Below are positions 1 through 51,212 of a stretch of 64,000 nucleotides of DNA, one piece after another. The notes beneath the pieces were generated by a model. That model searched no databases and was not told where the DNA came from. It was given only the letters and a program-made list of their open reading frames with translations. Position 1 is the first letter of the stretch. Each line of letters opens with the position of its first letter. Origin of the DNA: Marsupella aquatica (Eukaryota > Plantae > Marchantiophyta); contig OZ316891.1 of the NCBI GenBank assembly GCA_973895155.1, forward strand, positions 8,309,875-8,373,874, in the 5' to 3' direction. Both the position numbers and the translations under genes were made by a program.

Positions 1-941
1 CAACATATCGCATGTTGGCACTGGACCATTTGTCGGGTTGCTTTCCACTCTCCAACATCAACTGAAGGGTCGTGGTTTAATCAAGCCTACACAAACGGTA
101 TCAGTCCACTATCAACAGATCAACTCACAATGACAAGTGTTAACATCCGACCGACAGGGAGGGTTATTAAATATTGAGTAACCCAATATCCTCTAATGAC
201 AAAAACAAATTGCAAAGGGGAAGAGAGTTTCAGACACAGATGCAAATGGAGAGTATAAATCAAAACTCAGGAGAAAGCAATTTGGGGCATCCAAAGACAC
301 AGGGAACAAACAACTACAATCAGTAGACATTGAAATTTATCCCGAATAAGTTTTGATCTCATCAAGTCAATGATCGTTTCCAACCTATGTTTGATAATTA
401 TTCAGTGAACGACCCTTGTCGACTCTAACATTGCTGACCAAACGTTGATTTAATTACTGTAGGTTTCTGCCTTTGCTCAACAGAAAAAAAAAACTGTGTG
501 AAACGGAACCGCGATTCAGAGAAACAGGCACACTGCAAAAAGCTCGGTGAATCTTCATAAAATGCTTCTTCACTTTTGAAGCAAACGAATACATCCTTTC
601 AGTAAAAGGGGAAAACCAAAATTCATAACAAAGGGGAAAACAAAGTACAATGAAGTAAAAGCACAAGGAAACTACAGTAGGTACAAAGAGGACAAACCTC
701 TAACAAGATTAAAAAAAGCAAGTGCAACCCTGCAAGAAGAGGAAAAAGAAACGGAAAAAGCAGGTAACACTTCACTAGTGGGATGGACGTCCTAAGCTAA
801 AACAAATGTGGCAAGAGCTAATGATCCACATATAGTGTCATAACTAAATTTGCAAGAGGAACATGCATGAACTCTATAGGGTACAAAATTCTGCCGATGC
901 AAACTAGCTTCCACTATGAAGGATGGACGATAAATTGCTGC

Positions 942-1053
942 ACAGTGTCACTGATGTGTGCTGACCATTTAAGTCTGTGGGGGAGTTGATTATTACAATG
1001 TCACTGAAGTGTGCTGACCATTTAAGTCTGTGTGGACGAGTTGATTATTGCAA
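942..1053. repeat. Two-copy tandem duplication, ~55 bp unit
   Basis: TGTCACTGA(T/A)GTGTGCTGACCATTTAAGTCTGTG..GAGTTGATTATT occurs twice back to back. Confidence 0.85.
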
Positions 1054-2267
1054 AGGTCCAGTAATTCAATTCAGTACTGTTGTTCTTATGCCTTAGTGTT
1101 ACTCCTCCATTCATAGCTTTGAACATGTACTCCATGTAGAAAACAAGAGCATTAGTCTCCATAATTCCACCCATATCCAACAAACTAACTCAGCGTCGAA
1201 GCTCTCACAATCACGAAGGATAAAAGTGAGGGTGTCTGGTTACAATTGCCAATACTACTCAGGCGTGAGATTGCCTCAAAACTTCAGGCGTACGATCCTC
1301 AAGCCTAACTAAAACCATCTTTTACGGAGCCACCCACTCATTACCAGATAACAACTGGATGAGACGAAAGCAAGTCGAACAAATATGCAAATTAATCCAA
1401 AGAGATTTCGGATGTTTCGCATTCAAAACCAACTATTTCCATACATTAATGGCTTTACTTGCGAGTTCCCACAGAGCAAGCGAATAGTAGCAGTGGCACT
1501 CCCACTGAGTCAACTCCTACATTGGACATTGACATGAGTCGAGGAAGCAAAAGCTTAAAATGATTGTATGATTGAATTGTGAAGTAGGCGCGGTATTATG
1601 TTGAGACCAGTTCAGGCTCAGCTGAATGAGTTTCGCGACCGTTAGAAATGCTAGCATAGATGGAAAGAAACTGTAAGCCATCTGCCATCCGGACAATTTG
1701 ATCAAATCCGAGAAGCACGCTCGCCAGAAATTTGCGAACTTACTAGAGGAAGTCGTTTCCCTGTCATTCCCATTATCCTCGTCCTGTTTTGGGTGAAGTT
1801 CCATCTACATTTGCATGGTGGAAATGTGAGGTACAAAGAACAGACTTAGGTCGCTTTACGGGAATTTACGCTGTGACCTCACGAGAATCAAGAAATGTGG
1901 CTTCGTTTGATGACTTGTCGTAAACTTTAATGCACGAAAACTCGTTTTCGAATCCTTTTCCAAGCCCAGTCCAGATTGCAACATGAAAACTTGGAGATTT
2001 CCTCATGGATCAGGGGACTTCAGTTGCACCGTGGCAGCAAGCACTAAACTTGAAGAATTCACGGATCTCAGCGCTTTCTATTGCACCGTGGCATCAAGCT
2101 ATCCCAACCACCCTTCTCTCTCGGCTGCCATTGCATTTCACACTCGAAGCAGGAAAGTCTAATTTTACAACAGAATACTAGACACCCGGAAATTACGGCA
2201 CGATCTCCGATGTTTGCGGATGAGTACAGCGGATTCAATCAGTGCTGCTGAGCTGCAAAAGTGCAAA

Positions 2268-2859
2268 ACCGACATGGCTTCTCATCAGGTGGCGGTACAT
2301 TGCTGCATTGTTCTCCCAGTCGCCCAAACTAAGGAAGTCTAGTGCACCTGTAAAATGGAGACACGCCATCCCAAAAGCATTCAAGACAACCAGGACAAAG
2401 CAAACGACCCCCCAAGCTTCATATCTCTCCGCGTGTCCTGCTACATCCTTGCATGTATGTACACTTGTCATGGGCTGAACTGCAATCCTCGTAGTTTCCT
2501 ACGCGGCGATCGTCGTGCCGAGATTTCACAGCGACACCTGTTATTCCACCGAACCAATCCATGTGGACCGGTCGGATCGAGACCATCAGTGACTCCGCCC
2601 CAAACTGTCAAGTCGCTGAGAAGACCATTCCAACGGGGGGAGTACAATTGTTAATTAAGATTGGAGAAAGTTCAGCGGCGTTCTTGGAGAATTAATGATC
2701 TTCTAAGGATCCCAGCTGAACCTTTGATCGCCCAGATCGACCATCGGAATGGCTCTAAGGAAGATTAGGAGCTCATCTTTGAGATAAGATCGAAATTATG
2801 AGGAGAGAGTAGTCTCCAAGGTCGGTGACTGCGAGGCTGAATGTGGTATAAAGCATGCA
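2268..2859 (+). promoter_or_regulatory. Putative stress/ABA-responsive promoter of the dehydrin
   Basis: DRE/CRT core ACCGAC at 2268-2273 and on the minus strand at 2821-2826; CE3/ABRE-like CGCGTGTC at 2430-2437; TATAAA at 2847-2852; RY-like CATGCA at 2854-2859. All are short motifs that can occur by chance, but they lie upstream of a dehydrin. Confidence 0.45.
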
Positions 2860-3078
2860 GCACTCCCCCCCGCTTTTCAACATTCACTCTCCATTTCTCA
2901 ATCCATCCTCACTTATCTGCAACAACTCGCTTTTTTACATACAAAGTGGTGATCATTCTGTCTTTCCCACTTATCATTCCGACAGTTTACAGTCGACATT
3001 CTTTGGAGAGGATCGAAGTCGAAGACTTGGGAGTTGCGAGAATTGGCGTGTTAGCTTCATTGACGTTAGCGATCCAAC

Positions 3079-3696
3079 ATGGCACAGTATGAGACGAACA
3101 CCAACGTGGTGCAGAAACCCGGAATTGTCGAGAAGGTGAAGCTCAAGGCTGAGGGCCTGATGGACAAGGTAACGGGACATAGTCACACCGGCACCACGAC
3201 TGGTGTTGGAGGAGCAGGAACGACGACGCCTGGGTTGGGCGGAGCAGGATCGAACATGTCAGGCGGGGGTGCCGGTTATGGACACCAGCAGCCAGGCTAC
3301 GGAGAGTCGCAGCAGCTCGGGACCAACACCGGGTACGCGGAGCAGCAGCCCCATGGTCACCACAACCACGGCCTTGGAGGACAGCAACCAATGATGGGAA
3401 CCACCGATGCCGCCTATGGACAACCCCAACATCATAGCGTCGTGGACAAGGTGAAGGACGCCGTCGAGCCCGGTCGCCAATCTGATCATGTGGGTGCTGG
3501 ATACGGTACTGGCACTGGCACTGGCACTGGCCATCACACCGGAACTGGCACTGGCATTGGCACTGGCCATCATACCGGGACTGGCACAGCTTCGGGAACG
3601 ACAGGCATGTCTTTAACCGACAAGATCAAGAGCAAGCTACCAGGCCATCACACTACCGGTACTGGAGCTGGCTACGATAACCAGGGCAAATATTGA
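3079..3696 (+). CDS. DHN: Dehydrin (LEA group 2), Gly/Thr/His-rich, 205 aa
   Basis: K-segment-like motifs KPGIVEKVKLKAEG, HSVVDKVKDAVEPG and MSLTDKIKSKLPGHH; low-complexity GTGTG/GHHTG phi-like segments; hydrophilic, no Cys or Trp; good start context AACATGG. Confidence 0.9.
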   Translation: MAQYETNTNVVQKPGIVEKVKLKAEGLMDKVTGHSHTGTTTGVGGAGTTTPGLGGAGSNMSGGGAGYGHQQPGYGESQQLGTNTGYAEQQPHGHHNHGLGGQQPMMGTTDAAYGQPQHHSVVDKVKDAVEPGRQSDHVGAGYGTGTGTGTGHHTGTGTGIGTGHHTGTGTASGTTGMSLTDKIKSKLPGHHTTGTGAGYDNQGKY

Positions 3697-4285
3697 GCTG
3701 AGCAGGTCTTCGGAAGCCTTGACTGTGTGCGTTTGTGTCACATTGATCGAGAGTCGGCTCTAGCTAGCATCAGAAGTAGCTCGTTTCATAGATCTATCGC
3801 TAGACACTCGTCGAGTGTTAAGATCAATGACGAGTGGTCCATGCCACCATTACACTGACCTGGTGATGCATTGGAGCTTGGAGCTTGGATTATCAGTACC
3901 TAGCACCATCCTAGCATTGTCGCATTATCTAATGTGCAAGTTTGAAGATAGTTAAAATCCTTGCTGAATGGGTTGGTTTCCTCCCACGTAGGAAAGAAGG
4001 TTTCAAAGTAGGCAAATCTCTGCATGTGGAATCGAAGATGACAATAATTCTCCCACGCAGGATACCAGAAAAGTAGCCCAATGTAGGCGATATGAGCATT
4101 AGCTGAAACTAGTTGGTGTTATGAAATCGATCATGACAGTGGGCACTATGGTGCAAATGTAATCTTAACGTGTGAGTCTTTTTACTGTAAATTCCAATGA
4201 AATCGAATATGACAGAGGTACATGGTGGAGGAGGACCATTTGATTATAATGAAACTATCATTTGTATCATTGCTTGGGCTGTTTT

Positions 4286-4580
4286 GTCTCAGTTTGCAGA
4301 GTGTAGCATTGATTTCAAATCTTGAGACCATTTGATTATAGCTGTACATCTGGTTGACGGACAGCTTGGACTCCTTTGTCTCAGTTTGCACAGTGTAGCA
4401 TTGAGACCATTTGATTATAGCTGTACATCTGGTTGACCGACAACTTGGACTCCTCTGTCTTAGTTTGCACAGTGTAGCATTGATTTCAAATTTGAGACCA
4501 TTTGATTATAGCTGCACATCTGAAGTGTAGCATTGCTTTGAATACTTTGAGAGAACGACCAATGAATTGTAGCCGTATAT
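4286..4580. repeat. Tandem repeat of ~80-95 bp units inside repeat copy 1
   Basis: AGTGTAGCATTG...GAGACCATTTGATTATAGCTG(T/C)ACATCTG recurs 3-4 times; fewer units at the matching place in copy 2. Confidence 0.8.
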
Positions 4581-5041
4581 CTGGTTTAACTCTTGCATGT
4601 TGATTGACATTTTAGTCATGCGCAAGTCTGGTTGTGCAGATTAAAACAATTAGAAATTGAAATCAAGAATTTTTGTATCATCTGCATGTACAATACCAAC
4701 ATAAATTCACTGCACTAACATTTTCCATGAATTGAAACCGAAAGATTTAGCCAAAACGAAAATGGAGTGATGGAGTGATAGTGCGAAAGAGGTGGCCAAA
4801 ACCATGAATTGAAACCGAAAAAGTTAGCCAAAACCATCAATTGTAACCTATTCGGATGATTATGCTTCGGATGATTATGCTTCTTCTCTTGATTCAAATG
4901 CAATATTAAATTACCACCTGAAGAAGTTCGAAAGTAGAAAAAGTAAAAATTTGGAAAATTCTGTCATCCCCTGGAACAATGATGTCTACAACGTCCGAAA
5001 ACTAAAATACATCATGTCTGTAGAAGAATTTGGTAATAAAT

Positions 5042-5137
5042 GCGATTAATCCAGCATCTCATAGTCCAAGCAATGCGAGTGAAAAGGAGCGATTAATCCA
5101 GCATCTCATAGTCCAAGCAATGCGAGTGAAAAGGAGC
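5042..5137. repeat. Perfect ~47 bp tandem duplication
   Basis: GCGATTAATCCAGCATCTCATAGTCCAAGCAATGCGAGTGAAAAGGA occurs twice. Confidence 0.9.
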
Positions 5138-6330
5138 TGAAGTTTCTGCAAACTTCTCGTTCTCAGTGTGTTAACTGATTGGTCTTCAACAGTTACTATT
5201 GACGAACATCCATATTTCGTGGATACATTGCGTATTGTGGTTCAAAATCTGAATCCAGTCCCTACCTTTGACTGACGGCCCCAAAACTCTACCTTGAATG
5301 CCATGTAAATTTCATCAACTATGGCTTCACCCTGAACGTTTCAGATTTCTTCTGAGTACCACACCCTTGATCCCCCCACACATTCTGACCCAACTCCGAA
5401 CGTCGCTCTCGACGATGGTTATTATCAGCCTCCACACACTTCTTGATGTACATTTGGAGTTTTTCCCAATCTCGTAGACTTAGTGACCAGGCCTTTGTCT
5501 TTAGCTGCCTTGGGACTTCATAACTTGGGTGTCAGGCCTGTAGCTCAGGGTTCATAAATGAAAATTCTGCTCCCTTAAGTGTTCAAGATTCAGTTCTTCA
5601 TAGTCAGAGACGTAAGAATTGAACAAGTAACTCAAGGTTTCCCTTGGATCTCATCTTAACGTCTAGGTGCAAAGCGTGTCACAGAATATTTCCTTAAAAG
5701 CCCAAAACAAATAATCATAGGAATTGTTGATCACATGCAGAAGAAACTCAAGATTTCCATTCTCTCCCAAAGCACATAACCAGCATGGATGCGCGATGCC
5801 AACAGTAACTGTTGCATTGCAAAACTTGGCTTCGAGTAACAACAATAAGAGTGAGAGAGAGTTTTCTGAAGTAGACCACTAAGAATGTCCACAGATTGTT
5901 ATGAATTCTATATACACCTTAAGTGGTAAGTTCATTGCTAGTGAGATGATTCACTTCCATTTGTTGTAATCTCACTTGGTCAACATTTGGTTGCATGGGC
6001 AAGACCATAGATGTTGACTGGATAGTTTGTTAAATTGAGCATATCAAATGTCCGCCTTTGAGGGGTGAAAGAGTCTGCGAGGGCCATAGACCAAAAGTCT
6101 CTTGCTCCACCAAAAATCCAGCTGGTTAGTCCCAACAACGTTTTCTTAAATGTTCACATCCTCCAAAACCCAAATACCCTCCTAGTTCACCATATAGTCC
6201 TCTAGCTTCGAAATGTTTTTAGAGCTAAGAACATCGCTGGGTCCAACCATGAATGATTGTTGTCATATGAACAATGTAGTTGCTACCTATGATTCCGAAT
6301 GTTCTGATCCAAATTATTTGATCTCTTCAG

Positions 6331-6847
6331 GTGGAAGTGCCTATTCATGAAGTTCATGGGCTTCCAAACTATCCTCTTGATTTGGAGAGACGCTGCTTGG
6401 ATGTGAAGGAGAGGCTTGCTGGTGGAGCTCTTCTTGGAATTTTGGCATGGGTGGGATTGACAAGACCACTCTTGCAATGCAAGCATTTAACATTCTTTCC
6501 AAAGACTTTGAATAATAAACTTTGTGGATAATGTAAAAGGCATCCCATTACACGAATTGCAGGATCGGGTTCTCAATCACTTTTATCACAATGGGAAGAA
6601 ACCAGATAAAGGTGTAATTGAGTGGCAGCATTTGCAGAGCAAGAAAGCTTTAATTGCCATGGATGACGTAGATGCGCAGGATCAGCTCATCATTCTACCA
6701 AGATTGGAGCACAGGTTGAGAGAAGCACAAGCCATAACTGCGGAGAAACGGGACAGGGTCAGGGCTTCCTTGAGGATAAGCTATGATGCCCAGTTACCAG
6801 AGGAACAGGGGATCGATGTTCATCGAGGCTGCGTCGATTTTCTTTGA
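6331..6847 (+). pseudogene. Degenerate NB-ARC (NLR resistance-gene) fragment
   Basis: Frameshifted pieces give a P-loop GMGGIDKTTLA (6444-6476, canonical G replaced by D, stop at 6513), kinase-2 KKALIAMDDVDAQDQL and a LRISYDAQLPEEQ segment resembling the region before RNBS-D. The GLPL region appears deleted. Possible splice acceptor TTCAG at 6326-6330. Confidence 0.8.
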
Positions 6848-7177
6848 ACAGCCATTGGAGCCAGTCTAATGCAGTTCAACCCATCTTCTTCGCAACGGCC
6901 CAAAGCATTCCCGTATATCATCTGTCTTGTATTCGTGCATTGAAAACCCCGGAGGTTGCCATTGCTGGAGGGGCCTTCGGGAGCTCCACCTGGGACCTGC
7001 GTCGAGCCATTCACCTTTATTGAGAAGTTGAAGGGATCCGAAATATCTGGAATGTTAGCAAGGTAAGGAAATAGATTTGGAAGGAATGGAATCCAATGCA
7101 CGAAAGGGAAGCTGTGTGGTATAAATTCAAACTGCCAAATCTTACTGTAAAAGCGCAAACTCAAGCCTACTATTAAA

Positions 7178-7515
7178 GGCCTAGGTCTAGAGTGAAGACT
7201 CTAGACCTTAACTCTTTACCAATAGAGACAAAAATTGATCTGTTTACCTTACTATAAAAATAAAAGTGCCAACTGAAATCTACTTTTAAAGGCCTAGGTG
7301 TAAAGTGAAGACTCTAGACTTACTATAAAAGTGTCAATGCTTTTAAAGGCTTAGGTCTAGAGTGAAGACTCTAGACAATAACTCCCAGGTCTAGAGTGAA
7401 GACTGTAGACTTACTATCAAAGTGCCAACTCTATAGTAGATTTACTATGATATGAAAAGTGTCAATTGAAGTCTATTTTTAAGGGCCTAGGTCTAGAGCG
7501 AAGACTCTAGACTGC
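7178..7515. repeat. Array of five short hairpin units, GTCTAGAGT-GAAG-ACTCTAGAC
   Basis: Copies start at ~7183, 7296, 7353, 7387 and 7489; 9-11 bp stem with GAAG loop; related spacers (TTACTATAAAAGTG(C/T)CAA). Confidence 0.85.
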
Positions 7516-7629
7516 AACTCCCAATAGAGAACAATGATCTTGAAATTCAATAAGGTCAAAATTTTAAACAAGGATGAACAAAAATAACATTAACTCTAAA
7601 AAGACAACTAAAAAGCGCAGGAAGACAAG

Positions 7630-7720
7630 ATCCCTCAGGCGGCAAAAGACCCAATCAAAAGGGGTAACCAAATCATCCCTCAGGCAAAAGACCCAATGAA
7701 AGGGGGACAACCAAAGGACC
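7630..7720. repeat. Two copies of a dispersed A-rich repeat (GGCAAAAGACCCAAT..AAGGGG), possibly a retroelement end
   Basis: Similar segments at ~24941, ~41872 and ~42165, and inverted at ~63810. Confidence 0.55.
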
Positions 7721-8192
7721 TAGAAAGGCCATGAGTCCATGACGCAAAGAAAGTCGTTCACGTATGACGTATGACGAGGTCTCACTTGGTCGCACCCTAC
7801 AGTCGTGTACCTACCAACGGTGTTCCCAAAATCTTGCAGAAGGCGCAGCGAGCCTACCAAAACATCTACTGTACAGTTAGTAGGAGCCCCGCACTTCAAG
7901 ACTCTCGGCCGTATCTCACAACCTTCACGTGAATTTATAAGCTCGCTGATTTTCGCATCTCAGAAAGCTTCACTTGGAATTCGCATCCCAGTAGCTTCAG
8001 AAAAACTCTCTCTTCAGGGGGGTGTGTCTCTCATGCTCGACGAAAACGGTCACCTTCCTTGTGTCATCTCACCAGCCTTCATCGCAGAGAATTCTCTCCG
8101 GTCGTTCTTTCCTCCTCACAAAAAACTGGAATGCTGGTTGTATGCTATAGCTCACCAATCTCACGTCCTTAGATCAGCTTCACCAACCCACA

Positions 8193-9437
8193 ATGGCCTC
8201 GCCAATCTACCCACTCCCACCAGGCGTCTACGCCGTCCCCTCTCACCTCCTTGATCTGCGGGCGGATTCTGAAGTGGATTATGACCTCCTTCATCCCAAG
8301 CCCGTGTCCGATGAGAAGAACATTTGGTTCTTCTGGCACTCTGGCTACACGCAGATGCACCCCTACACGAAGAGAAATATTAGAGCATGGCATCGGCGCA
8401 TCTCCAAGCAAGGGTGGACGATTCGCGTCCTCGACCGCCTCTCCTCCTCGCCCCTGAACGTCGCAAACTTCCTTGACATCTCTGACCCGGGCACTTTTCC
8501 CGTTGCGTTCGTGGATGGGACCATCGGCGGTGACTACGCGCCCCAGCATACCTCCGACCTCGTCCGGTTTCCACTTCTGCTCAAGTACGGGGGTGTGTAC
8601 GCCGATGTAGGGTTGATGCAAATCGGCGACTTGAATCGACTATGGAGCGAGACTGTTGGCAACCCTGCCTCGCGGTTCGATGTCCTCACTTACAACGCTG
8701 GCGGCGTCGAGGTGCGCAGTCTGACGAACTACTTCCTTTGCTCTGGACGGAACAATCCGTTCTTTGCACGCTGTCACAAGCTTCTGCTGGAGTTGTGGGC
8801 CGCCGACGGCGGCAAGACGAGCACTGACGGAATGCACAGCAGTCCATTGCTAACGGGGGTTGAGCTGTTGGGGGAAGGATTATATACAATTGAGGAGGGC
8901 GAGAAGAAGATTGGGCCGGAAGAAGTCAGTAGGATGTTAACGGATTACATTATTCAGGCTCAGGTGATGACGCTTGTCATGGGTCTCATCGATGAAGAAG
9001 ATGGCTGGGACGGACCAAAGTATGTCGCAGAGCACTTGTACGCCATCGAGTACATGGTGGGCTCGCAGCTCATTAACCAGATGACTGAATGGGACGGGAA
9101 GAAGGCCTTCACTCTAATGTCGCTTCCGCTTCCGAAAGAAGGTGAAGTGGAGACCGCAGAGCAGAAACAGGCCAGGGAGATCGTCGAGGAATGCTTGCAA
9201 AAGAGCTTCGGATTTAAGCTCGCTCATGGGCTGATTCTGAGAGTCTTCGGAGACACCTTGGGGTCGCTGTGGAGGAAGCATGAGGGCTCGGATAATGTAC
9301 CAGGGACCTACGCGCATTATTTGAGGCACGGGACAACGTATTGGAATCAGGACGGTGTTCCACCTGGGCTGGAATTCAAGGTTATCGAGCCGATTAAGAG
9401 GGGCCCGTTGTTGAGGTCCACGCCATCATTACACTGA
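8193..9437 (+). CDS. Fungal-type 'capsule polysaccharide synthesis' (Caps_synth/GT32-like, DxD-type) glycosyltransferase, 414 aa, intronless; probable HGT
   Basis: Uninterrupted 414-codon ORF. Motifs KNIWFFWHSG, RNIRAWHRR, HTSDLVRFPLLLKYGGVYADVG and LTNYFL match my recollection of ascomycete Caps_synth proteins. No signal peptide or TM segment is evident, and it is GC-richer than its flanks. Confidence 0.85.
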   Translation: MASPIYPLPPGVYAVPSHLLDLRADSEVDYDLLHPKPVSDEKNIWFFWHSGYTQMHPYTKRNIRAWHRRISKQGWTIRVLDRLSSSPLNVANFLDISDPGTFPVAFVDGTIGGDYAPQHTSDLVRFPLLLKYGGVYADVGLMQIGDLNRLWSETVGNPASRFDVLTYNAGGVEVRSLTNYFLCSGRNNPFFARCHKLLLELWAADGGKTSTDGMHSSPLLTGVELLGEGLYTIEEGEKKIGPEEVSRMLTDYIIQAQVMTLVMGLIDEEDGWDGPKYVAEHLYAIEYMVGSQLINQMTEWDGKKAFTLMSLPLPKEGEVETAEQKQAREIVEECLQKSFGFKLAHGLILRVFGDTLGSLWRKHEGSDNVPGTYAHYLRHGTTYWNQDGVPPGLEFKVIEPIKRGPLLRSTPSLH

Positions 9438-11250
9438 TCTGGTGATGCATTGGAGCTTGGAGCTTGGATTACCAGTACCTAGCACCATCCTAGCATTGTC
9501 GCATTATCTAATGTGCAATTTGACGATAGTTAAAATCCTTGTTGAATGAGTTGGTTTCCTCCCACGTAGGAAAGAAGGTTTTCAAAGTAGGCAAACCTCT
9601 GCGTGTGAAATCGAAGATGACAATAATTCTCCCACGTAGGAAAGCAGAAAAGTAGCCCAATCTAGACGATATGATCATGAGCTGCCTGAAAGGAATCTAG
9701 TTGGAGTTATGAAATTGATCACCACAGTGGGCACAATTGTGCAAAAGTAGTCTTGTCGTGTGAGTTTTGTTACTGTAAATTTGCAATGAATTCGAACATG
9801 ACAGTGAGGTACACGGTGACGGACGACCATTTCATTGTAAAGGAATTGGAGTTATGAAATTGATCACGACAGTGGGCACAATTGTGCAAAAGTAGTCTTG
9901 ACGTGTGAGTTTTGTTTACTGTAAATTTGCAATGAACTCGAACATGACAGTGAGGTACATGGTGAAGGACGACCATCTGATTGTGAAGGAATGAGTTTCA
10001 GTTGTATCATTGCTTGGATTGCTTTGTCTCAGTTTGCAGAATGTAGCATTGATTTAAGTTTTTAGAGAACAACTGATTATAGCTGTCCGTCTGTTTGACG
10101 AAAAACCGGAATGTAGTATTGATTTGAGTACTTTGAGAGAATGATTAACTGATCGTAGCTGTACATCTGGTTGGTTGACAATCAACTCGAACTTCTCTCA
10201 TATTAATGGGATGTTGTCATGCGGAAGGAAATTTACACAAACTTCTTTCGTTGTGGAGAATGAAATCTAGAAGTTTTGCATCATTATATGCACAATACTA
10301 ACAATTTCCTGAAAATGGAGTGAGTGCGAAAGAGTATGATGATGATGATGACTATGTTACTTCTACTGTGCATGACAGATTGCGGATTTGGAACACTCTT
10401 GATTCAAATGCAATATTGAGTTACCACTGTGTGACAAGCAAACAATTTGTTCGATTTTGTTACCACTGAATTCTGTCCCCATCCACTCCGAACAATAATT
10501 TCTACAAAGTTCGAAAGTTAGCCAGCAAAATAGTTTTAACACTTCGGAAACCAAAATACAAATAGTCTGTAGGAAAATTTGGAAGCAAACGCGATTAATC
10601 CAGCATTTCAGAGTCCAAATTGTGGAATTTTGCACCCATACAGTATTAGTTAAAAGAGCGGAAGTTTCTGATATTTCCTCGTTTATATTCCGACTTGTGG
10701 AATTTTCACCCTTACTGTAAGAGTGAAAAGAGCGGCAATTTCTGGTAACTCCTCGTTCTCAGTGTGTAAAACCAACTGTTCGTCAACAGTTGCAATTGAC
10801 GAACATCCATATTTCGTGCATCCACCGCGCAATGTTGATTTAAGATCGGAATCCAACCCCTACCTTTGACTGAAGACCCCAACATGCTACCGTTAATGCC
10901 ATGAAGTTTTCATCAAGAACTATGGCTTCACCCTGAACCTTTCAAATTTCTTCTAACTACCACACCCTTGATCCTCCACAGATCCTAACCCAACCCCGAA
11001 CGTCGCTCTCGACGATGATTATTACCAGCCTCCACGCACTTCTTGATATGCATTTGGAGCTTTTCCCAATCTCGTAGGCTTAGTTACCAGGCCTTTGCCT
11101 TCAGCTGCCTTGGGACTTCGTAACTTGGGTGTCGGGCCTGCGGCTCAGGATTCATAAATGAAAGTTCTGCTCCCTGAAGTGTTCAAGATTCAGTTTTTCA
11201 TCGTCACAGGTGTGAGAATTAAATAAGTAACTCAAGGTTTCCCTTGGATC
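9415..11250 (+). repeat. Segmental direct repeat, copy 2 (~1.8 kb); overlaps the last codons of the glycosyltransferase
   Basis: Homologous to 3836-5650; contains its own ~145 bp internal tandem duplication (~9701-9992). Confidence 0.95.
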
Positions 11251-11934
11251 CCAAGACTTGAGAGGCCGCGATTTCCTCGGAATGCTAATGGCAGGGGAAA
11301 CATGCGAATGTGAAATCCTCTTTCATCCACAAACGTCGTCAAGTGACTTAGAGACCAGGTTGGAACATTTAGACCACTTGACGGATGCTCAGAGACTGCA
11401 GGTCCAACAAGAGAATCAAAAGGTAATTAAGAAATTGGGCTTGATGAACCAATTCTTTAAGGTTCTTACAATGAGTAAGACAGCTGTCCAGTGAGCCAAA
11501 ATACAACTTTCAGATGCGGAGGAGCTTCTACATAAGACTGTGTTTTCTAAATCTGAACACAGGAAAGCATTCTCACTCCAAGTGTCACAAGCATCGAACC
11601 TAAAAGCCATTCTGGTCCCCAAAGAATGCTTATATAAATGATTAAACGAGAACAATGCAGAACACACCGAAGGCGAAACAATACTGTACGTGGCCGTGTT
11701 AGTGACCGGGAGAATGGATTTCAATATTTCAAATACGAAAAGCGGCATGAACCTGACAAACTTCGGTAGACATGAACTGTATAGAACTTCAGTGACACCA
11801 GATATGGACCGGTAACAGCAAAGAGAGGCTGAGATTTTCAACACCCTTCGCATCAGTAGTCCAATAGGTAGACACAGGCAAAGCTTGTGACTTTTACTAA
11901 ACTAAATGACTCAACTTTTACTAGAATAAATGAC

Positions 11935-15170
<3,236 letters not shown>

Positions 15171-22747: not shown

Positions 22748-22933
22748 CAACTATAATAAGGGATCTCATTCCCTTATTTTTTGGCATCTTTCTTCCCAAC
22801 ATAAAAAAGTTCTTGGGCGGGAAAGATACACAATAGTTGGATTCCAACTATAATAAGGTATCTTCTTTTTTTTCATCCTTCATCCCAATATAAAAAAGTT
22901 ATTGGATGGGAAAAATCCACAGTAATTGGATTC
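22748..22933. repeat. Diverged two-copy tandem duplication, ~90-97 bp
   Basis: CAACTATAATAAGG...CCCAA(C/T)ATAAAAAAGTT...TTGGATTC occurs twice. Confidence 0.8.
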
Positions 22934-37374: not shown

Positions 37375-38925
37375 CTAATCTACAAGGCAACTGCGCTTAA
37401 ACGGCACCCAGCATTTATAATTCGCCGGAGCTAACTCCTTCCTCGCAGCAGCAATTCTCCCTAGAACCCTCTCCAAGCTGATCTCATATGCATCTTTGCT
37501 GACGCTGGACGGATCATTCTCGTAGCCATTGTAAATCAAGTTAGGGATAATAGAGACGATATTCTTCCGCATTTGGCTGATTTGCTGCGGAGAGTATGAC
37601 ATCAAAATATCCTGGATTGATACTCCTCTCTTGAGGTCCTTCTCTGATATGTACACGGAGTAGCTCTCGAGATCCTGAGGAAGATGCCACGGATACTGAG
37701 TATAAGCGGTATCGTTGTGGAAGAACACGGGGATGGCCCCAGAAATGAGACAATCGAACGTAGATCTCCTCGTGGCGGTGTCACCTTTCGGCTGCAAGCA
37801 AAAATTGGCTGACAAGAATGATTTGTAGATGGCGACGGGGTCGTGGCTGCACCGCACGACTGAACAGTTCACCAGATTGCAAACCGACTGCCCAGCGTTT
37901 ATGCATGCATTTCCAATGAGACCCCTAACGCTCCAGCTATCAGGCCTCGGTGCCCCTACATAGGAGAATAGATACTTCCTTCTCGATCCCTCGACTTTGT
38001 GGATCCATGCCTGCAGCTCCTGAGGCGTTTCGGGATGGAACGCTGTTGGGTAGGGAATTCCTATCTCGTGCTTCGCGGTCGGACGTCGTTCTAGCAGCAA
38101 ACTGGTCATGTTAGAAGCGTAGGGAAGCTCACTGAGCCCGGTCCCCCACGTCGAATGGAGATAGAAATCCCAACTTGTCCTACCCTTTATCATGAAATGA
38201 TCTCGTCCACCGAACTTGCTCCAATATTCGCCGCCGTTCTGTTCCAGATAGTCGAAAAGCTCCTGGCCGAAGTTCTTCCTTTTCTCGATCGTGAGTGCAG
38301 TATCAGTCTGATCATACAAAAGATCAAGCGCTAGTAGGCCCGTGTAATAAGGGACGAAGAAGGCGTCAGCTTGGGATGCGTCTTGAGTTAAACAGCGATA
38401 TTTCTGCAGACGAGTGTGGAATATCATTTCCAGCATGTAAGAATCGGTATCATGCCAGTTATGTATATCAAAATCATGACGAGCGCTCTTCATTTGCGCG
38501 GTGTCATTCTTTCTCTCCAGCTTCGCTCCATAGCCACCGTTTGAAAAACGAGGGCACAGATCAATCCATTTCATGAGAGACTTGTTACACCTACTCTCGT
38601 CGTGGACGGCGATGTTGAACTCGGGAGGAAGGTCGTACATGAAAATCCGCTTGCCTTTACAACTATCGAAAGTTTCCCTTTCGAAGGATGTGGCATATCT
38701 CAAAGTCTCATATTTCCCCTCGAGTGGGTCTAGACCTGGACAAGCGAGGATGATAAATAGTACCGAAAATATCGATATCCAGCAGCATAGCCTCGGCGAA
38801 GCTTTTCGGTTAATCTTCTTCACCTTTACTTTCACCAGCAGCTTCTCTTTCTCGGACCCTAGAGACTTGCTCGCTGCCTTCTCCATGTTCAGCACACTCC
38901 CATCTGTTTTGTTTAAGGAGAACAT
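37375..38925 (-). CDS. GT47 exostosin-family glycosyltransferase, MUR3/XLT2/XUT1-like (xyloglucan side-chain galactosyl/galacturonosyl transferase clade), 516 aa
   Basis: Type II membrane topology (basic tail, then hydrophobic CCWISIFSVLFIILAC). Motifs CKGKRIFMYDLPPEFN, ADAFFVPYYTGL, GGRDHFMIKGRTSWDF, IPYPTAFHP and FCLQPKGDTATRRSTFDCLISGAIPVFF. Single coding exon; the start could be the second Met. Confidence 0.93.
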   Translation of the reverse strand: MFSLNKTDGSVLNMEKAASKSLGSEKEKLLVKVKVKKINRKASPRLCCWISIFSVLFIILACPGLDPLEGKYETLRYATSFERETFDSCKGKRIFMYDLPPEFNIAVHDESRCNKSLMKWIDLCPRFSNGGYGAKLERKNDTAQMKSARHDFDIHNWHDTDSYMLEMIFHTRLQKYRCLTQDASQADAFFVPYYTGLLALDLLYDQTDTALTIEKRKNFGQELFDYLEQNGGEYWSKFGGRDHFMIKGRTSWDFYLHSTWGTGLSELPYASNMTSLLLERRPTAKHEIGIPYPTAFHPETPQELQAWIHKVEGSRRKYLFSYVGAPRPDSWSVRGLIGNACINAGQSVCNLVNCSVVRCSHDPVAIYKSFLSANFCLQPKGDTATRRSTFDCLISGAIPVFFHNDTAYTQYPWHLPQDLESYSVYISEKDLKRGVSIQDILMSYSPQQISQMRKNIVSIIPNLIYNGYENDPSSVSKDAYEISLERVLGRIAAARKELAPANYKCWVPFKRSCLVD

Positions 38926-41900
38926 ACGGCCCTCCTAAACAGAAGCGCTAGGCGCTGTTCTGCTCTGCTCCTTTCAACGTAAACAATGTGAAAGGAGATC
39001 TGCCAAACTGACCAAAAGCCTAACCCTTGATCACGAGCTTTTTGTTCACATTATTGTTCTCCGCAATCTGCACAAGTCGCAACAATTCGGAAGTCCTGTT
39101 AAACACAACATCAACATCTCCGGTTTCGACGTTCAATTCCGATTTCTTCAGTGGTGCTAGAAACCGGTGATAGAGTCACCTGCACGTTGGAAACATTCCT
39201 GACAAATTTCGGTTGCGACGGGACGAGCTGTGGGATAACAACCAAAAGGCGAAATGGCTACTATAGGCACGACAAGTTCGTGCTATGACATGCATTCAGA
39301 GTCCTTGGTAGAAGCCGTGTACCTGCGCATCTTCTAGAGAGTAGATGGCAATCCCCAAACGTGTACCAATCTTTACCAGTGCTCAAACGACCAAACGAAC
39401 ACCACTGACAACGAACACGATGCCTCCTACAAACACTCCGGTAAACTCATTCCTGACGAGAAGGAATTTTTTCCCGGGAGACTTCAGCTGACCAGCTGGC
39501 CCAGAGACGTCATGCGTTCACCACTAAATACAACAGCTACAGGCAGACTACCATGCTCCAGAGCTTGGTGAGCTCCTATACTCCTCCTTCCTTCGACGGC
39601 CGGCTGAAGAGCTCCCGATGCAAAAAATCCCGAGACTTAAAACCGAAGGCTCGTACATTTTCCTCCGAGACGTTCAACTTTTCTGCCTCGTTTGTATACC
39701 TTTTTATTTTCTAAACGATTGCCCCAGCTCTTCCAACAACCCTCCGTCATGAATCCTGCAAAATTTCACTCGTAGTCCAGCTCTAACGAGATCCCAAACC
39801 AGGATCTCGCTCCTTGATTACAGTTTCTGGCTCCTATCCCCTAGTATGGGACCAGCCCCACTCCGAAGCTGCCCTTATAGCTGTACACTTCCTGCAAAGG
39901 AATTACAAGGAGCCCAACGCAATCCCGCCAGGGATATGACCTGATGCGAGCCGTGCCTGCTGATGCACATCAGGGTTTTATTTAATAAAACATTCGATCA
40001 TGCTCGATCACTTCGCTGATAGGCAAGTCGATCACCAGCAATCTCTGGTGTCCCGTCGCCCAGTCTCGCATGCGCCACTGAGAGACCGTACCGCAGGGGC
40101 TGCTGCACACTTTCGTCACAGCTTCAGACTGTCGGGTGGGCCTCGCGGAGAGAGGAGAGGGGAGAGAGCTAGACGTAGTAGATTGCGTTTACTGCGGCCC
40201 CGATCAGTGCGCTAAATTTACGACTCAAGACCAACCCGTTCCAACAATAAATTGCTATCCTAGCCGGTGAGACATCGGCAGCAGCACGCGGCTTTTCTTC
40301 TTCCTTCCTTTTCGCGGGCACTGCCTGCGCAGCTGCTGCTGCTGCGTCACGAGCAGTAAGCTCATCAATCCATTATCCCACCGTACATTGAAGCTAAGTC
40401 CTTCCCTCATAAGACTTTTCCCAGTTTCCGTTCCCTACTCAGCTCGTGCGTACAAACACGAACGCTCAACGATATATGCGAGCTGTTACCCTCTAATCAC
40501 ACTCAATCACTCATTCCTCCTCGAATCCTCGACCACTCACCAGTACGAGTATGCTCTAGCTAGAGCTGTAGGTAAACAGCCCTGCTCGAGGGCAAACAAA
40601 AAAAACTCTCGACTTGACCTGGCCTTGCCTGACCTGACGTTCCCTTCCAGCTCGGCCAACCGCCTACAACCCAATAGCTGATCGGTAACTTTCGCTAGAC
40701 TGAATCCCTGAATCCCTGAATCCCTGCACTGCCCTAGCTGTCCACAGATGCCCAGTGTCCGTCGTGCAGGCCGGCTGTCCCTGCCTTGACTGCCCCGCTA
40801 CCCTTTTCCAGGAAAGCTTTTTGGCACGCAGGCAAGCAGGCAGGTAGGCAATAAGGCAAATGAAAGGTCCGCGAGCTTCAGACGCAGCAGACAAACCGAA
40901 AATCTCAAGAGATCCAAAAGAGCGTAGGCGCATAGCGCTGTTCTCACATGAGTGCTCTCTGCTCATGAATCTCTGTTGCTCAGCTCGGCTCGGCTCTCCT
41001 CTGCTTCACCATAGCCTACTACTCTACGTTGCCCAAAGCAATTTCTCCTCCTGGAGGACAATTGGACAAAAGCTTGCAGGACCCAGCTCTGCTCTGCTAC
41101 TACTGTAGATTCTCCAATCACACGCACATGTGGAGACACACTCGGATCTGTACAGTAGACGTAAAGACAATTTTGGGGTCTTGGATCTATCGATGACTCT
41201 TTCGGAACCCCAAATTTCTGGTAGGCTGGGGATTGCGAATTAAAACTTTTTAAAAATAAGCGTTGATCGTTTAACACTTAACAGGGATCAGGAACGAGAT
41301 TCCCGTTGCAGGCCACCTTAGAGCCGAACCATGTGGAGTTCATCCTCTCTCACTTACTTTTATTGCCACCTCTTGCTGGATTGTAAAAAGCCCACCCTAG
41401 ATCAAGCCTGATGAGGAGCCAACTTGAGCTCCATTCCTCCACCGTCAATGTTTCTGAGATTCTAATATTACCATACCACTACTCTATCACATCAAATGTC
41501 ACATATATCTCAAAACAAAAAGCTCCAAACAGGGAGACACATTATGATGTACACATATATGACATTGCCAAAAACAAAAATGACCATCTCAAAGACAAAA
41601 GGCCAATAATGAGGAGAAGGAAAGGGAGAAACTCAGAAATGCTAACGAGTCAAATAGCAGGAGTCCCATACCATAAGAAAAACCTTGCCTATATTATGAT
41701 TCATGATATGATTCATGATGGTCTACCTTTTATGACCTGCTCATAGAGTGAAACCATAGGCCATAATTTATCTCCCAAGTGACAATTTTGGTATTTTCTT
41801 GTGAGTAGGGATATGCAGTGGGAGTCTACAAATGCCACAGAGTTAAAGCATTGAACATAGAGAATCTTAGAGGCAAAGATCCAATAAAGGGGAGAAAACA

Positions 41901-50610: not shown

Positions 50611-50885
50611 TTGATTCCTGTGTAATGTGCATAAGCTGCCAGTATCAAAGTACCACATATATAAAATAACTATAAACATATAGAGGACTACTGTATCTAG
50701 GATTATATAATCACGATAAAAAGCTGCTCCGCTTCTGTGCCTATGGCAGTATGGCTTGATTCCTGTGTAATGTGCATAAGCTGCCAGTATCAAAGTACCA
50801 TAAAGATTATAAATATAAACATATAAAGGACTATCTAGGATTATAAAATCATGATAAAAAGTTGCTCCTCTGTTGTGCCTATGGT
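50611..50885. repeat. Tandem duplication, ~145 bp unit
   Basis: TTGATTCCTGTGTAATGTGCATAAGCTGCCAGTATCAAAGTACCA at 50611 and 50756. Confidence 0.9.
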
Positions 50886-51212
50886 CGAGAGTGAAATCTC
50901 TAGACCCTGGCTCTAGGAATGTAACTGAACTTGAGATGCGAGTGAAAGCAAATATATATATCACTATAAAACTACTGTAATGTGCTCCTTTTCTGTGCCT
51001 AAAGTAACTATGGTCTAGAGTGAAACTACTAGACTTAGCTCTAGAAATGTAACTGAACTTGAGGGACGGTGGAAAAGGAGAGATTGGGGGCAAAGTGAGT
51101 CCCTGAAAACGAAGCACTGAGCGTGAATGTCATCACCTTTATTTATATTCTAAAATCAGCAATAAGGCTATTATTTAATGAAGATCTAATAAAGATGCAA
51201 TTGCAAGTTAGA

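Follow-up and report, generated by a model that had tools for sequence, protein, structure and literature searches.

A fungal-derived glycosyltransferase gene completed by a duplicated host flank: a likely scar of gene entry into a liverwort chromosome

The window, a stretch of 64,000 nucleotides of the leafy liverwort Marsupella aquatica analysed here, contains a dehydrin-like gene and a convergent SRPK kinase gene. Between them lie two direct copies, R1 and R2, of a 1.8 kb sequence, and between these copies lies inserted DNA, here called the cargo. The features, in positions of the window, are the following.

3079..3696, forward strand: dehydrin-like host gene, an open reading frame (ORF) of 205 amino acids, rich in Gly, His and Thr, with three K-segment-like motifs
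3836..5650, no strand: R1, the left one of the two 1.8 kb copies, non-coding (local alignment; single-copy depth in run X1)
5651..5830, no strand: start of the cargo at the R1/cargo junction, short and single-copy (run X1 contig 5108–5833, 0 differences, depth 13.8)
6280..6860, forward strand: broken remnant of an NB-ARC-LRR gene of host type, from a multi-copy family (protein matches, tblastn)
7140..7530, no strand: five stem-loops in AT-rich units, part of a host repeat with very many copies (depth, shuffles)
7540..7800, no strand: more high-copy host repeat, ending near 7800 (summed depth 485 in run X1; unique contig from 7770)
7800..8060, forward strand: putative promoter, single-copy, proposed from a G-box and a TATA-like sequence
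8061..9416, forward strand: fungal-derived DNA, a non-coding leader of ~130 nt followed by the coding sequence without its last two fungal codons and stop (nhmmer, blastn)
8193..9437, forward strand: intact, intronless ORF of 414 amino acids for a Caps_synth (PF05704) / GT32-like glycosyltransferase (Pfam, alignments)
9415..11250, no strand: R2, right copy of the duplication, supplying the glycosyltransferase stop and a likely 3′ UTR (alignment, bridging contig)
11251..11934, no strand: single-copy DNA separating R2 from the SRPK stop (run X1 contig 9871–14500)
11935..15170 (5′ limit approximate), reverse strand: SRPK kinase gene of the host, running towards the dehydrin-like gene (stop at 11935–11937)

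An earlier note on this DNA had given the order dehydrin, R1, cargo, R2, SRPK, and this order and the repeat structure are borne out: the repeat alignment, the NLR remnant, the hairpins, the fungal-like ORF and the SRPK stop were all located. The cargo does lie between R1 and R2, but the last 23 nt of the fungal ORF, its stop included, already belong to R2. R2 does precede the 3′ end of SRPK, but 684 nt of single-copy DNA, in which no coding remnant was found, separate it from the SRPK stop. The best match of SRPK is from Calypogeia fissa (78%), with other named plants at ~50–55% at full coverage. The other flanking gene is a putative dehydrin, named for three K-segment-like motifs spotted by eye; a Pfam search of its ORF gave no family at E up to 1. 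Nor is the cargo one foreign block. It is a mosaic of host and fungal pieces, of at least three origins, and the note had missed that R2 completes the fungal reading frame. This completion is the most informative feature of the locus; the local duplication with the host debris inside it is an ordinary part.

What is the origin of the glycosyltransferase gene? The best 120 of 831 protein matches hold 25 from named organisms, all of them fungal (25/25), at 73–87% identity, the nearest relative being 87% identical. No plant-named protein occurs among these 120, though the collection includes proteins of C. fissa and Marchantia, and no C. fissa glycosyltransferase was found either there or in the 8 clusters examined; older plant homologues may lie among the 711 weaker matches. 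The protein has an Atlas score of 0.99 to fungal clusters, and in the tree it is nested among fungal proteins, grouping with two unnamed environmental proteins (SH-aLRT 93). At the DNA level, blastn of the segment against 26 glycosyltransferase loci gave up to 82.7% identity over 1235 nt. The likeness begins upstream of the coding sequence, where a fungal-type upstream profile matches the non-coding leader (8061–8195, nhmmer E 1.2e-8), and the ends of the fungal fragment are thereby mapped to about ten bases (5′) and to within a few bases (3′). These comparisons show that 8061–9416 is fungal in origin and reached the plant genome by horizontal transfer.

The encoded protein scores 50.4 bits with PF05704 (cut-off 24.5) and 25.6 with PF04488 (cut-off 23). 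It retains 157 of 159 highly conserved columns and shares the motifs H-T-S-D-L-V-R and Y-G-G-V-Y-A-D-V-G with its fungal relatives, which are annotated in databases as ‘putative glycosyl transferase FCK3’ or ‘O-glycosyltransferase’. The predicted structure has a pLDDT of 93; its structural matches, Och1 and other GT-A domains, are distant (E about 1e-5, TM about 0.3). The function is the least certain part of our account: the protein may transfer sugar from UDP-sugars, in the cytosol, to small molecules such as terpenoid-like or toxic microbial compounds.

Of the other pieces of the cargo, the stretch 5651–5830 matches neither the 26 glycosyltransferase loci nor any other part of the window. 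The segment 6280–6860 has 19 protein matches (best E 9e-21; tblastn best E 2e-27). All nine relatives scanned are NB-ARC+LRR proteins, some with an N-terminal hydrolase domain, and all eight looked up are from C. fissa. The fragment itself matches no LRR or N-terminal domain, has frameshifts near 6441 and 6514 and has lost ~95 codons at 6712/6713; its summed depth in run X1 is 50–150 against 15, that of a multi-copy family. It is a pseudogene fragment of a host-type NB-ARC-LRR gene. The five hairpins at 7185–7512 (stems of 8–11 bp, loops of 4 nt, z −3.4) belong to a repeat with a summed depth of 811 against 15 in run X1 and many loose ends. Two degenerate copies lie in the window, at 50884 and 51765, and none of 100 shuffles reached its 7 window matches. 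This repeat is likely a non-autonomous transposon. A Pfam scan of 7100–8193 gave nothing above the cut-off. The host repeat holds two ACGT cores (7760 and 7767), and the adjoining 7800–8060, which the fungal upstream profile does not match, holds a G-box (7926–7931) and a TATA-like sequence (7934–7940).

In local alignment, R1 (3836–5653) and R2 (9415–11253) are identical in 1370 of 1643 aligned columns (83%), with ends 82–96% identical and a middle rich in indels. The two largest blocks (blastn E 3e-171 and 2e-148) are far beyond chance. Since R1 starts 139 nt past the stop of the dehydrin-like gene, it is the 3′ flank of that gene; a six-frame Pfam scan of 3836–5337 gave nothing above the cut-off. 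The divergence is roughly 7–17%, with K2P distances in clean blocks of 0.067 (left 268 nt), 0.17 (next 145 nt) and 0.148 (right 525 nt). The first 268 nt are thus less diverged than the right block (17/268 versus 70/525, p 0.003), the pattern that constraint on a 3′ UTR would give. For R2 this argument is weaker, because its left part tolerates deletions of 7, 10 and 177 nt in other haplotypes.

Several points had been raised earlier. One was that R might be a transposon of high copy number, and it is not: depth fits two copies in runs X1 and X5 (a check that covers copies of at least 80% identity), at 12–18 over each copy against 15–17 in the flanks in run X1, and at 5.5 and 6.2 for two types of the left part of R against 5–7 over most of the gene in run X5. 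The copies are 88% alike in run X1, and their left parts 80% alike in run X5. The local duplication with insertion that the note proposed is supported. The note had also offered a tandem dehydrin duplicate with a replaced coding sequence, which is not supported, the cargo scoring 41 against 1–3835 where shuffles have a mean of 37 and a maximum of 45. It had taken the tandem duplications inside R as proof of age. They are present, in R1 at 4322–4483 (79 nt × 2.1) and 5042–5137 (47 nt × 2, identical) and in R2 at 9701–9992 (146 nt × 2). However, the 79-nt tandem is polymorphic, a joint skipping 154 nt occurring in two of four runs, so the age of the event is to be read from the R1/R2 divergence and not from the tandems by themselves. 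Finally, excision by recombination between R1 and R2, with presence/absence variation, finds no support: the longest perfect tract is 46 nt, the gene is present in all three runs of two other studies, and no joint among 15 of 34 skips the cargo. In five runs, no empty allele with one R was seen.

Where does the fungal DNA end? In 17 of 26 loci homology stops at 9412–9416, and in none does it extend further. This is exactly the start of R2, with a 2-nt microhomology (GG) at 9415–9416 that has a chance of ~1 in 16. The last two fungal codons and the stop are absent, and R2 supplies six codons and a stop. Of 116 relatives, 102 end three residues after a G-P-L-L motif, whereas the window protein ends seven residues after it, the extra residues being read from R2. 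In a second haplotype, with the 177-nt deletion in R2, the frame still reaches a stop. The canonical AATAAA is absent from either 3′ flank.

The fusion is physically part of the chromosome. Contigs of run X1, probably the source sample, bridge both 5650 and 9415 without a single difference; their depth is 13.6–13.8, against 15–17 in the flanks. One of them, of 7770–9468, spans the fungal/R2 junction, with 0 differences. As the note had held, the structure is not an assembly artefact. Runs X3, X4 and X5, from two other studies, contain the gene with R2-type flanks.

Comparison of haplotypes allows selection to be examined. Between them there are 14 synonymous and 12 non-synonymous changes (298 and 935 sites), a dN/dS of 0.27 (binomial p 0.001), and 25 of the 26 differences recur in run X5. 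In the run X3 contig, which may be the majority path over several haplotypes, no frameshift or stop occurs and the alignment of 1238 nt is free of gaps, whereas indels are present, in the same runs, in the leader and in R2. An ORF that had evolved neutrally since the duplication would still be open ~0.1–0.2% of the time (3.5–8% stop-free × 2% frameshift-free). Selection may nevertheless be relaxing, because the haplotype value exceeds that between the window and the nearest fungal-type locus (0.088/0.72), the window allele has the less common residue at six of the 11 positions that vary, and it changes one tryptophan invariant in 116/116 relatives. We consider the gene likely to be kept by selection and putatively expressed.

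We favour, at a probability of roughly 0.6, the reading that the fungal gene, lying between two flank copies and taking its stop from R2, entered during a break repair that duplicated the flank, and that it is expressed and selected. A broken end would have joined foreign DNA; repair synthesis would then have re-entered the chromosome 1.8 kb upstream at the 2-nt microhomology and copied R again. R2 would have given the 3′-truncated fungal gene a stop and the 3′ end signals of the dehydrin-like gene, and host sequence at 7540–8060 may have become its promoter. The NLR fragment and the hairpin repeat would be filler, or later insertions. A more elaborate version strikes us as doubtful. In it, a drought-stress gene of the host had its 3′ end copied by the repair to serve as stop and terminator, the adjacent host repeat lent ABA-type promoter boxes, and the result is an enzyme, induced by stress, that adds sugars to oil-body terpenoids or to fungal toxins.

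Could the duplication have come first? R, or a somewhat longer unit, may have been duplicated head to tail, with fungal and host pieces inserted later and a deletion fusing the gene to R2. The gene would be equally real and selected, but the duplication would be no scar of its entry. Local tandem duplications are indeed frequent across the window (29 listed) and the cargo is a mosaic. A deletion, too, would make the fungal end coincide with the beginning of R2, because repeat boundaries are by definition the ends of homology. Yet the other duplications measure ~40–300 nt, not 1.8 kb, more events are required, and no remnant of a longer duplicated unit was found; we judge this history unlikely.

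A further alternative takes R1 and R2 for the long terminal repeats (LTRs) of an ancient retroelement, today without other copies, in which captured fragments have taken the place of the interior; its 3′ LTR would serve the fungal gene as polyadenylation signal. Their length and direct orientation fit, both cargo genes share one orientation, R1 with a 3-nt extension reads TG...CA and R2 ends in CA; transferred genes of bryophytes are reported from LTR-dense regions (PMC12513842). However, R2 starts with AG, no target-site duplication of 4–8 nt was found, and there is no primer-binding site in either orientation. The sole purine run before R2 (8 nt) is fungal coding sequence, no gag/pol remnant was found, and depth indicates two copies only, for copies of at least 80% identity. 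Such an element is quite improbable here.

Less probable again is that transfer and fusion are real and the gene is a young, silent, decaying passenger, its constraint inherited or due to past use. The rare derived residues on the window's branch and the loss of the native fungal promoter beyond 130 nt and of the terminator would suit it, but the synonymous excess arose between plant haplotypes, that is, after the transfer, and the frame stayed open in run X3 beside leader and R2 sequences with indels. Fungi are present in liverwort samples, at the DNA level the gene has ~83% identity to fungal-type loci from the environment and its GC3 is 0.68 against 0.47–0.60 in three host genes, but a chimera with a co-sequenced endophyte is already largely refuted and almost certainly wrong: the bridging contigs have nuclear single-copy depth, the same fusion in different haplotypes of two other studies argues against contamination, plant DNA continues the cut reading frame, and no copy with the native fungal end occurs among 14 of 17 loose ends.

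Entry by break repair, our preferred reading, would make the locus a likely scar, still readable, of a fungal gene's arrival in a plant chromosome. Bryophytes are known to collect fungal genes, and time usually wipes out the traces of how such DNA was integrated and became expressible. Here we know which host DNA completes the gene, and selection after transfer can be measured on haplotypes of three studies. How transferred eukaryotic genes acquire a stop, a terminator and a promoter is thus directly testable at this locus, which possibly also adds a new enzyme activity to liverwort chemistry.

How does the locus compare with known systems? The protein resembles fungal Caps_synth (PF05704) / GT32-like enzymes in identity, motifs and GT-A-like fold, and differs in its plant genomic setting, in the changed invariant Trp and in the replacement of two C-terminal residues by six from plant DNA. 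BraB, a probable member of this family, is a model for a small-molecule GlcNAc transferase, an activity that would suit terpenoid-rich liverworts. It is a promiscuous N-acetylglucosamine transferase of brasilane sesquiterpene glycosides (PMC8403587, PMC7732752). The bra clusters described there include a terpene cyclase and a P450, neither of which was seen beside the 11 of 26 relative loci scanned (no terpene cyclase among 20 long neighbouring ORFs).

The hairpin array shares terminal hairpins and high copy number with the Helitron and Replitron-type rolling-circle elements reported from liverworts (PMC10288648), but shows neither a transposase nor defined termini, its five hairpins stand in tandem, and its position is off the R boundaries. 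In maize p2/p1, break-repair rearrangements with filler DNA create chimeric genes (PMC2686159). The mosaic inserted DNA, the joining of unrelated sequences into one gene and the repeats around it are similar; the maize filler is 1–131 nt and local, whereas here 3.8 kb with DNA of another kingdom was inserted and 1.8 kb of flank duplicated.

The closest parallel is with genes transferred from fungi to bryophytes, such as FB lectin, YANB, EUPF, RDS1 and the microbial terpene synthases (PMC12513842, whose section 8 names no Caps_synth gene). Like those described there, the present gene is intronless, lies among genuine plant genes, is possibly lineage-restricted and has a plausible role in secondary metabolism or defence. 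Unlike them, it retains a legible fungal leader and 3′ integration junction, and takes its stop from a duplicated host flank.

What lies between the dehydrin-like gene and the SRPK kinase gene, and how did it come to be there? The earlier note had described a cargo block enclosed by direct repeats, and the order that it gave stands:

3079-3696 (+), dehydrin-like gene
3836-5650, R1, left copy of the repeat R
5651-9414, cargo
6280-6860, fragment of a host-type NB-ARC-LRR (NLR) gene
7140-7800, five stem-loops
from about 8061, non-coding fungal leader
8193-9437 (+), Caps_synth (PF05704)/GT32-like glycosyltransferase ORF
9415-11250, R2, right copy of R
11935-15170 (-), SRPK kinase gene

The repeats are indeed a pair. 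A local alignment of 3836-5653 with 9415-11253 has 1370 of 1643 columns identical. In the clean blocks, substitutions per site amount to 0.067 over the left 268 nt, 0.17 over the next 145 nt and 0.148 over the right 525 nt, with 9 indels in 938 nt; the middle of R is interrupted by tandem duplications specific to each copy. Because R1 starts 139 nt past the stop codon of the dehydrin-like gene, the sequence copied in R2 is the 3' flank of that gene. The end of R2 lies 684 nt from the SRPK stop (11935-11937), and the best match of the SRPK exon is in Calypogeia fissa (78%; other named plants, about 50-55% at full coverage). No coding remnant was detected in R, and an Rfam search of 2500-13000 gave no match. 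An LRR remnant suspected by eye in the right part of R and 11251-11900 found no support in searches. Short adjacent duplications of 40-300 nt are numerous across the window (e.g. at 22748, 30659, 47145, 50610 and 62000); this genome duplicates locally very often.

Might the arrangement be an artefact of assembly? To address this question we examined five sequencing runs (X1-X5) from three studies that contain the stretch; X1 is probably the source sample, and X2, in which most of the gene is without cover but of which only about 57% was read, was excluded. X1 contigs 5108-5833 and 7770-9468 span the two junctions of the cargo without a single difference, at a depth of 13.6-13.8 (flanks 15-17, R 12-18). 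X3 and X4, of the second study, and X5, of the third, contain the gene in other haplotypes and with R2-type flanks, one having a 177-nt deletion right after the junction and one having 7- and 10-nt deletions. The structure is thus real, as the earlier note had held. Depths in X5 are alike (gene mostly 5-7, R1-type 6.2, R2-type 5.5). From these and the X1 depths we conclude that, down to 80-88% likeness, R occurs in two copies and is not the high-copy transposon that the earlier note had named among its refuting outcomes; genome-wide copy number is here judged from contig depth only, a crude measure with some records filtered out.

Several features of these runs deserve record. Three leader variants in X3 sum to a depth of 111, as against 61-63 for SRPK and R1, a weak hint of extra copies. 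An X4 contig of depth 97 joins the right part of R at 10974 back to its left part at 4072, with 28 letters between, a weak hint that the block is partly amplified or that one R copy is duplicated internally. At 9439-9577 the X4 records shown are of a single R-left type, with R1-type letters and high depth; R1 and R2 may have undergone gene conversion, or some records may have been filtered out. Across the stretch, X3 and X4 contain window-identical pieces alongside pieces 2-5% diverged, which suggests an allopolyploid or a mixture of plants.

The cargo is a mosaic, and each of the three components attributed to it by the earlier note (NLR remnant, hairpin array, fungal-like gene) is present. 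The NLR fragment has 19 matches. NB-ARC and LRR are both present in all nine relatives scanned, and the eight looked up are all Calypogeia fissa proteins; together with the SRPK match, this makes the host a leafy liverwort, though its genus may be another. Initial direct searches found nothing or a weak signal (Pfam NB-ARC, E 0.1); in tblastn the frame of the fragment shifts twice, and about 95 codons are missing at 6712/6713. In X1 contigs, undeleted paralogues appear as loose ends at 6713 with depth raised several-fold. The stem-loop region is part of a host repeat of very high copy number (summed depth 811 and 485 versus about 15 in X1). It looks like a non-autonomous transposon, and it was compared with the rolling-circle Helitron/Replitron-type elements treated in the accessible part of PMC10288648. 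Degenerate copies of the hairpin occur at 50884-51040 and 51765, two of them in tandem units near 50.9-51.0 kb. The segments 5651-5830 and 7800-8060 are single-copy, and 8061-9416 is fungal. Upstream of the fungal gene, 7760-7940 holds three ACGT cores (one a full G-box; about 0.55 expected in 310 nt), two of them at the edge of the high-copy repeat, and a TATA-like box.

The product of the fungal ORF is 414 aa long, and its Caps_synth and Gly_transf_sug domains both exceed the Pfam cut-off. The best 120 of its 831 protein matches are 73-87% identical; all 25 organism-named rows among them are fungi, both asco- and basidiomycetes, and no plant is named among these 120. The transferred gene is probably lineage-restricted. 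In a tree of 121 rows, with 58 of 118 inner branches open, the ORF groups with two unnamed environmental proteins inside the fungal set (SH-aLRT 93, not starred). At the DNA level, 26 related metagenome loci match the gene at up to 82.7% over 1235 nt; the rest of 3000-12400 has no match to them. A profile built from five upstream regions matches 8061-8195 (E 1.2e-8), and thus the non-coding leader was transferred along with the gene. A possible leader intron spans 8022-8150 (GT-type donor near 8022, TAG at 8148-8150); in the X3/X5 haplotype CAG replaces the TAG and the branch-site motif is better, and one X3 leader variant differs between 8041 and 8133.

Copies of the gene 84% identical occur in both asco- and basidiomycetes. 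The fungal-type loci differ in their neighbours, one having a fungal zinc-cluster gene; five (L001, L002, L005, L011 and L023) have about 150 nt of leader in common, then diverge into different neighbours. These differing neighbours suggest that the gene probably moves among fungi too, and nearly the same unit, gene plus short leader, looks to have reached the plant.

The PDB holds no sequence relative of the glycosyltransferase. A fold predicted from 117 sequences (pLDDT 93; from 26 sequences, 48) gives distant GT-A matches at 10-16% identity, the fungal mannosyltransferase Och1 and domains of bacterial effectors among them. The protein is without a delivery domain and is not taken for a toxin. 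At 37378-38934 (-) lies an ordinary plant gene, an exostosin GT47 ORF that looks intronless and encodes about 500 aa.

How does the fungal frame end? In 102 of 116 relatives the protein ends three residues past a G-P-L-L motif. In the window the fungal DNA stops within the first of these three codons, where fungal end and R2 start have two bases (GG) in common, and the frame continues six codons into R2 to a stop at 9435-9437. The DNA matches agree: 12 of 26 end at 9416, five more at 9412-9415 and none beyond, and fungal downstream DNA has no match past 9415. Since R2 is a copied 3' flank, the fungal gene relies on the duplication for its stop codon and, by inference, for a putative terminator. 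We conclude that the fungus-to-liverwort transfer is real, with a legible integration junction and a frame completed by duplicated host flank.

Has the gene been maintained? The X3 contig differs from the window over 8190-9427 at 26 positions, without gaps; 25 recur in X5. Fourteen are synonymous (298 sites) and 12 non-synonymous (935 sites), giving dS 0.049, dN 0.013 and a ratio of 0.27 (p 0.001). If the gene dates from the duplication (about 0.05-0.07 per lineage), a neutral frame of that age would stay stop-free in 3.5-8% of cases and frameshift-free in about 2%. Even in the 177-nt deletion haplotype the frame reaches a stop, with a tail of 21 residues, not 6. Against selection, the haplotype ratio exceeds that versus the nearest fungal-type locus (0.088/0.72), and at 6 of 11 variable sites the rarer residue is the one in the window allele, which also changes 2 of 159 highly conserved columns. 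The event is left undated in years, because no liverwort nuclear substitution rate was found in the literature.

We propose that an ancestral dehydrin-like-R-SRPK interval would have broken where R ends on the right. Foreign DNA would have been joined to the broken end, and synthesis would have restarted at the left end of R via the 2-nt microhomology, copying R a second time; host fragments may be filler from the event or later arrivals. Integration of an R-carrying circle, which would yield an identical structure, is included in this explanation. The whole account, including a transferred, fused and maintained gene, has a probability of about 0.62. Transfer, fusion and maintenance together are very probable in themselves; that there was a single event is somewhat favoured. 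One repair event is the simplest account, and a stepwise history in its place is unlikely. That the paired repeats are LTRs is still less probable; target-site duplication, primer-binding site and copy number all speak against this reading. A dehydrin duplicate with replaced coding sequence, proposed in the earlier note, left no trace: the cargo is without homology to 1-3835, and the promoter-promoter score of 32 is no higher than shuffled sequences reach (mean 24, max 38). In principle, recombination between R1 and R2 could excise the block. The presence/absence variation predicted from such excision did not appear, no empty allele being seen in the runs, and the longest perfect R1/R2 tract is 46 nt; divergence at this level suppresses homologous recombination in plants.

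The glycosyltransferase family may be linked to BraB. BraB is described as a promiscuous terpenoid N-acetylglucosamine transferase, its Pfam family not being given in the sections available (PMC8403587, PMC7732752). Database labels on matches among the best 120 of 831 point to FCK3, in the accessible text of PMC9861600 a probable glycosyltransferase of a fungal cytokinin cluster; this link too is a putative one. No report of the gene or architecture in liverworts was found in the literature searched, most subscription papers and the PMC12513842 data tables lying outside it. Fungus-to-liverwort gene transfers are known and frequent, to go by the portion of PMC12513842 at hand, one supplement of which makes no mention of the glycosyltransferase family. 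In maize, chimeric genes are known to arise when breaks are repaired with filler DNA, although the filler described in the part of PMC2686159 available is far smaller than that here.
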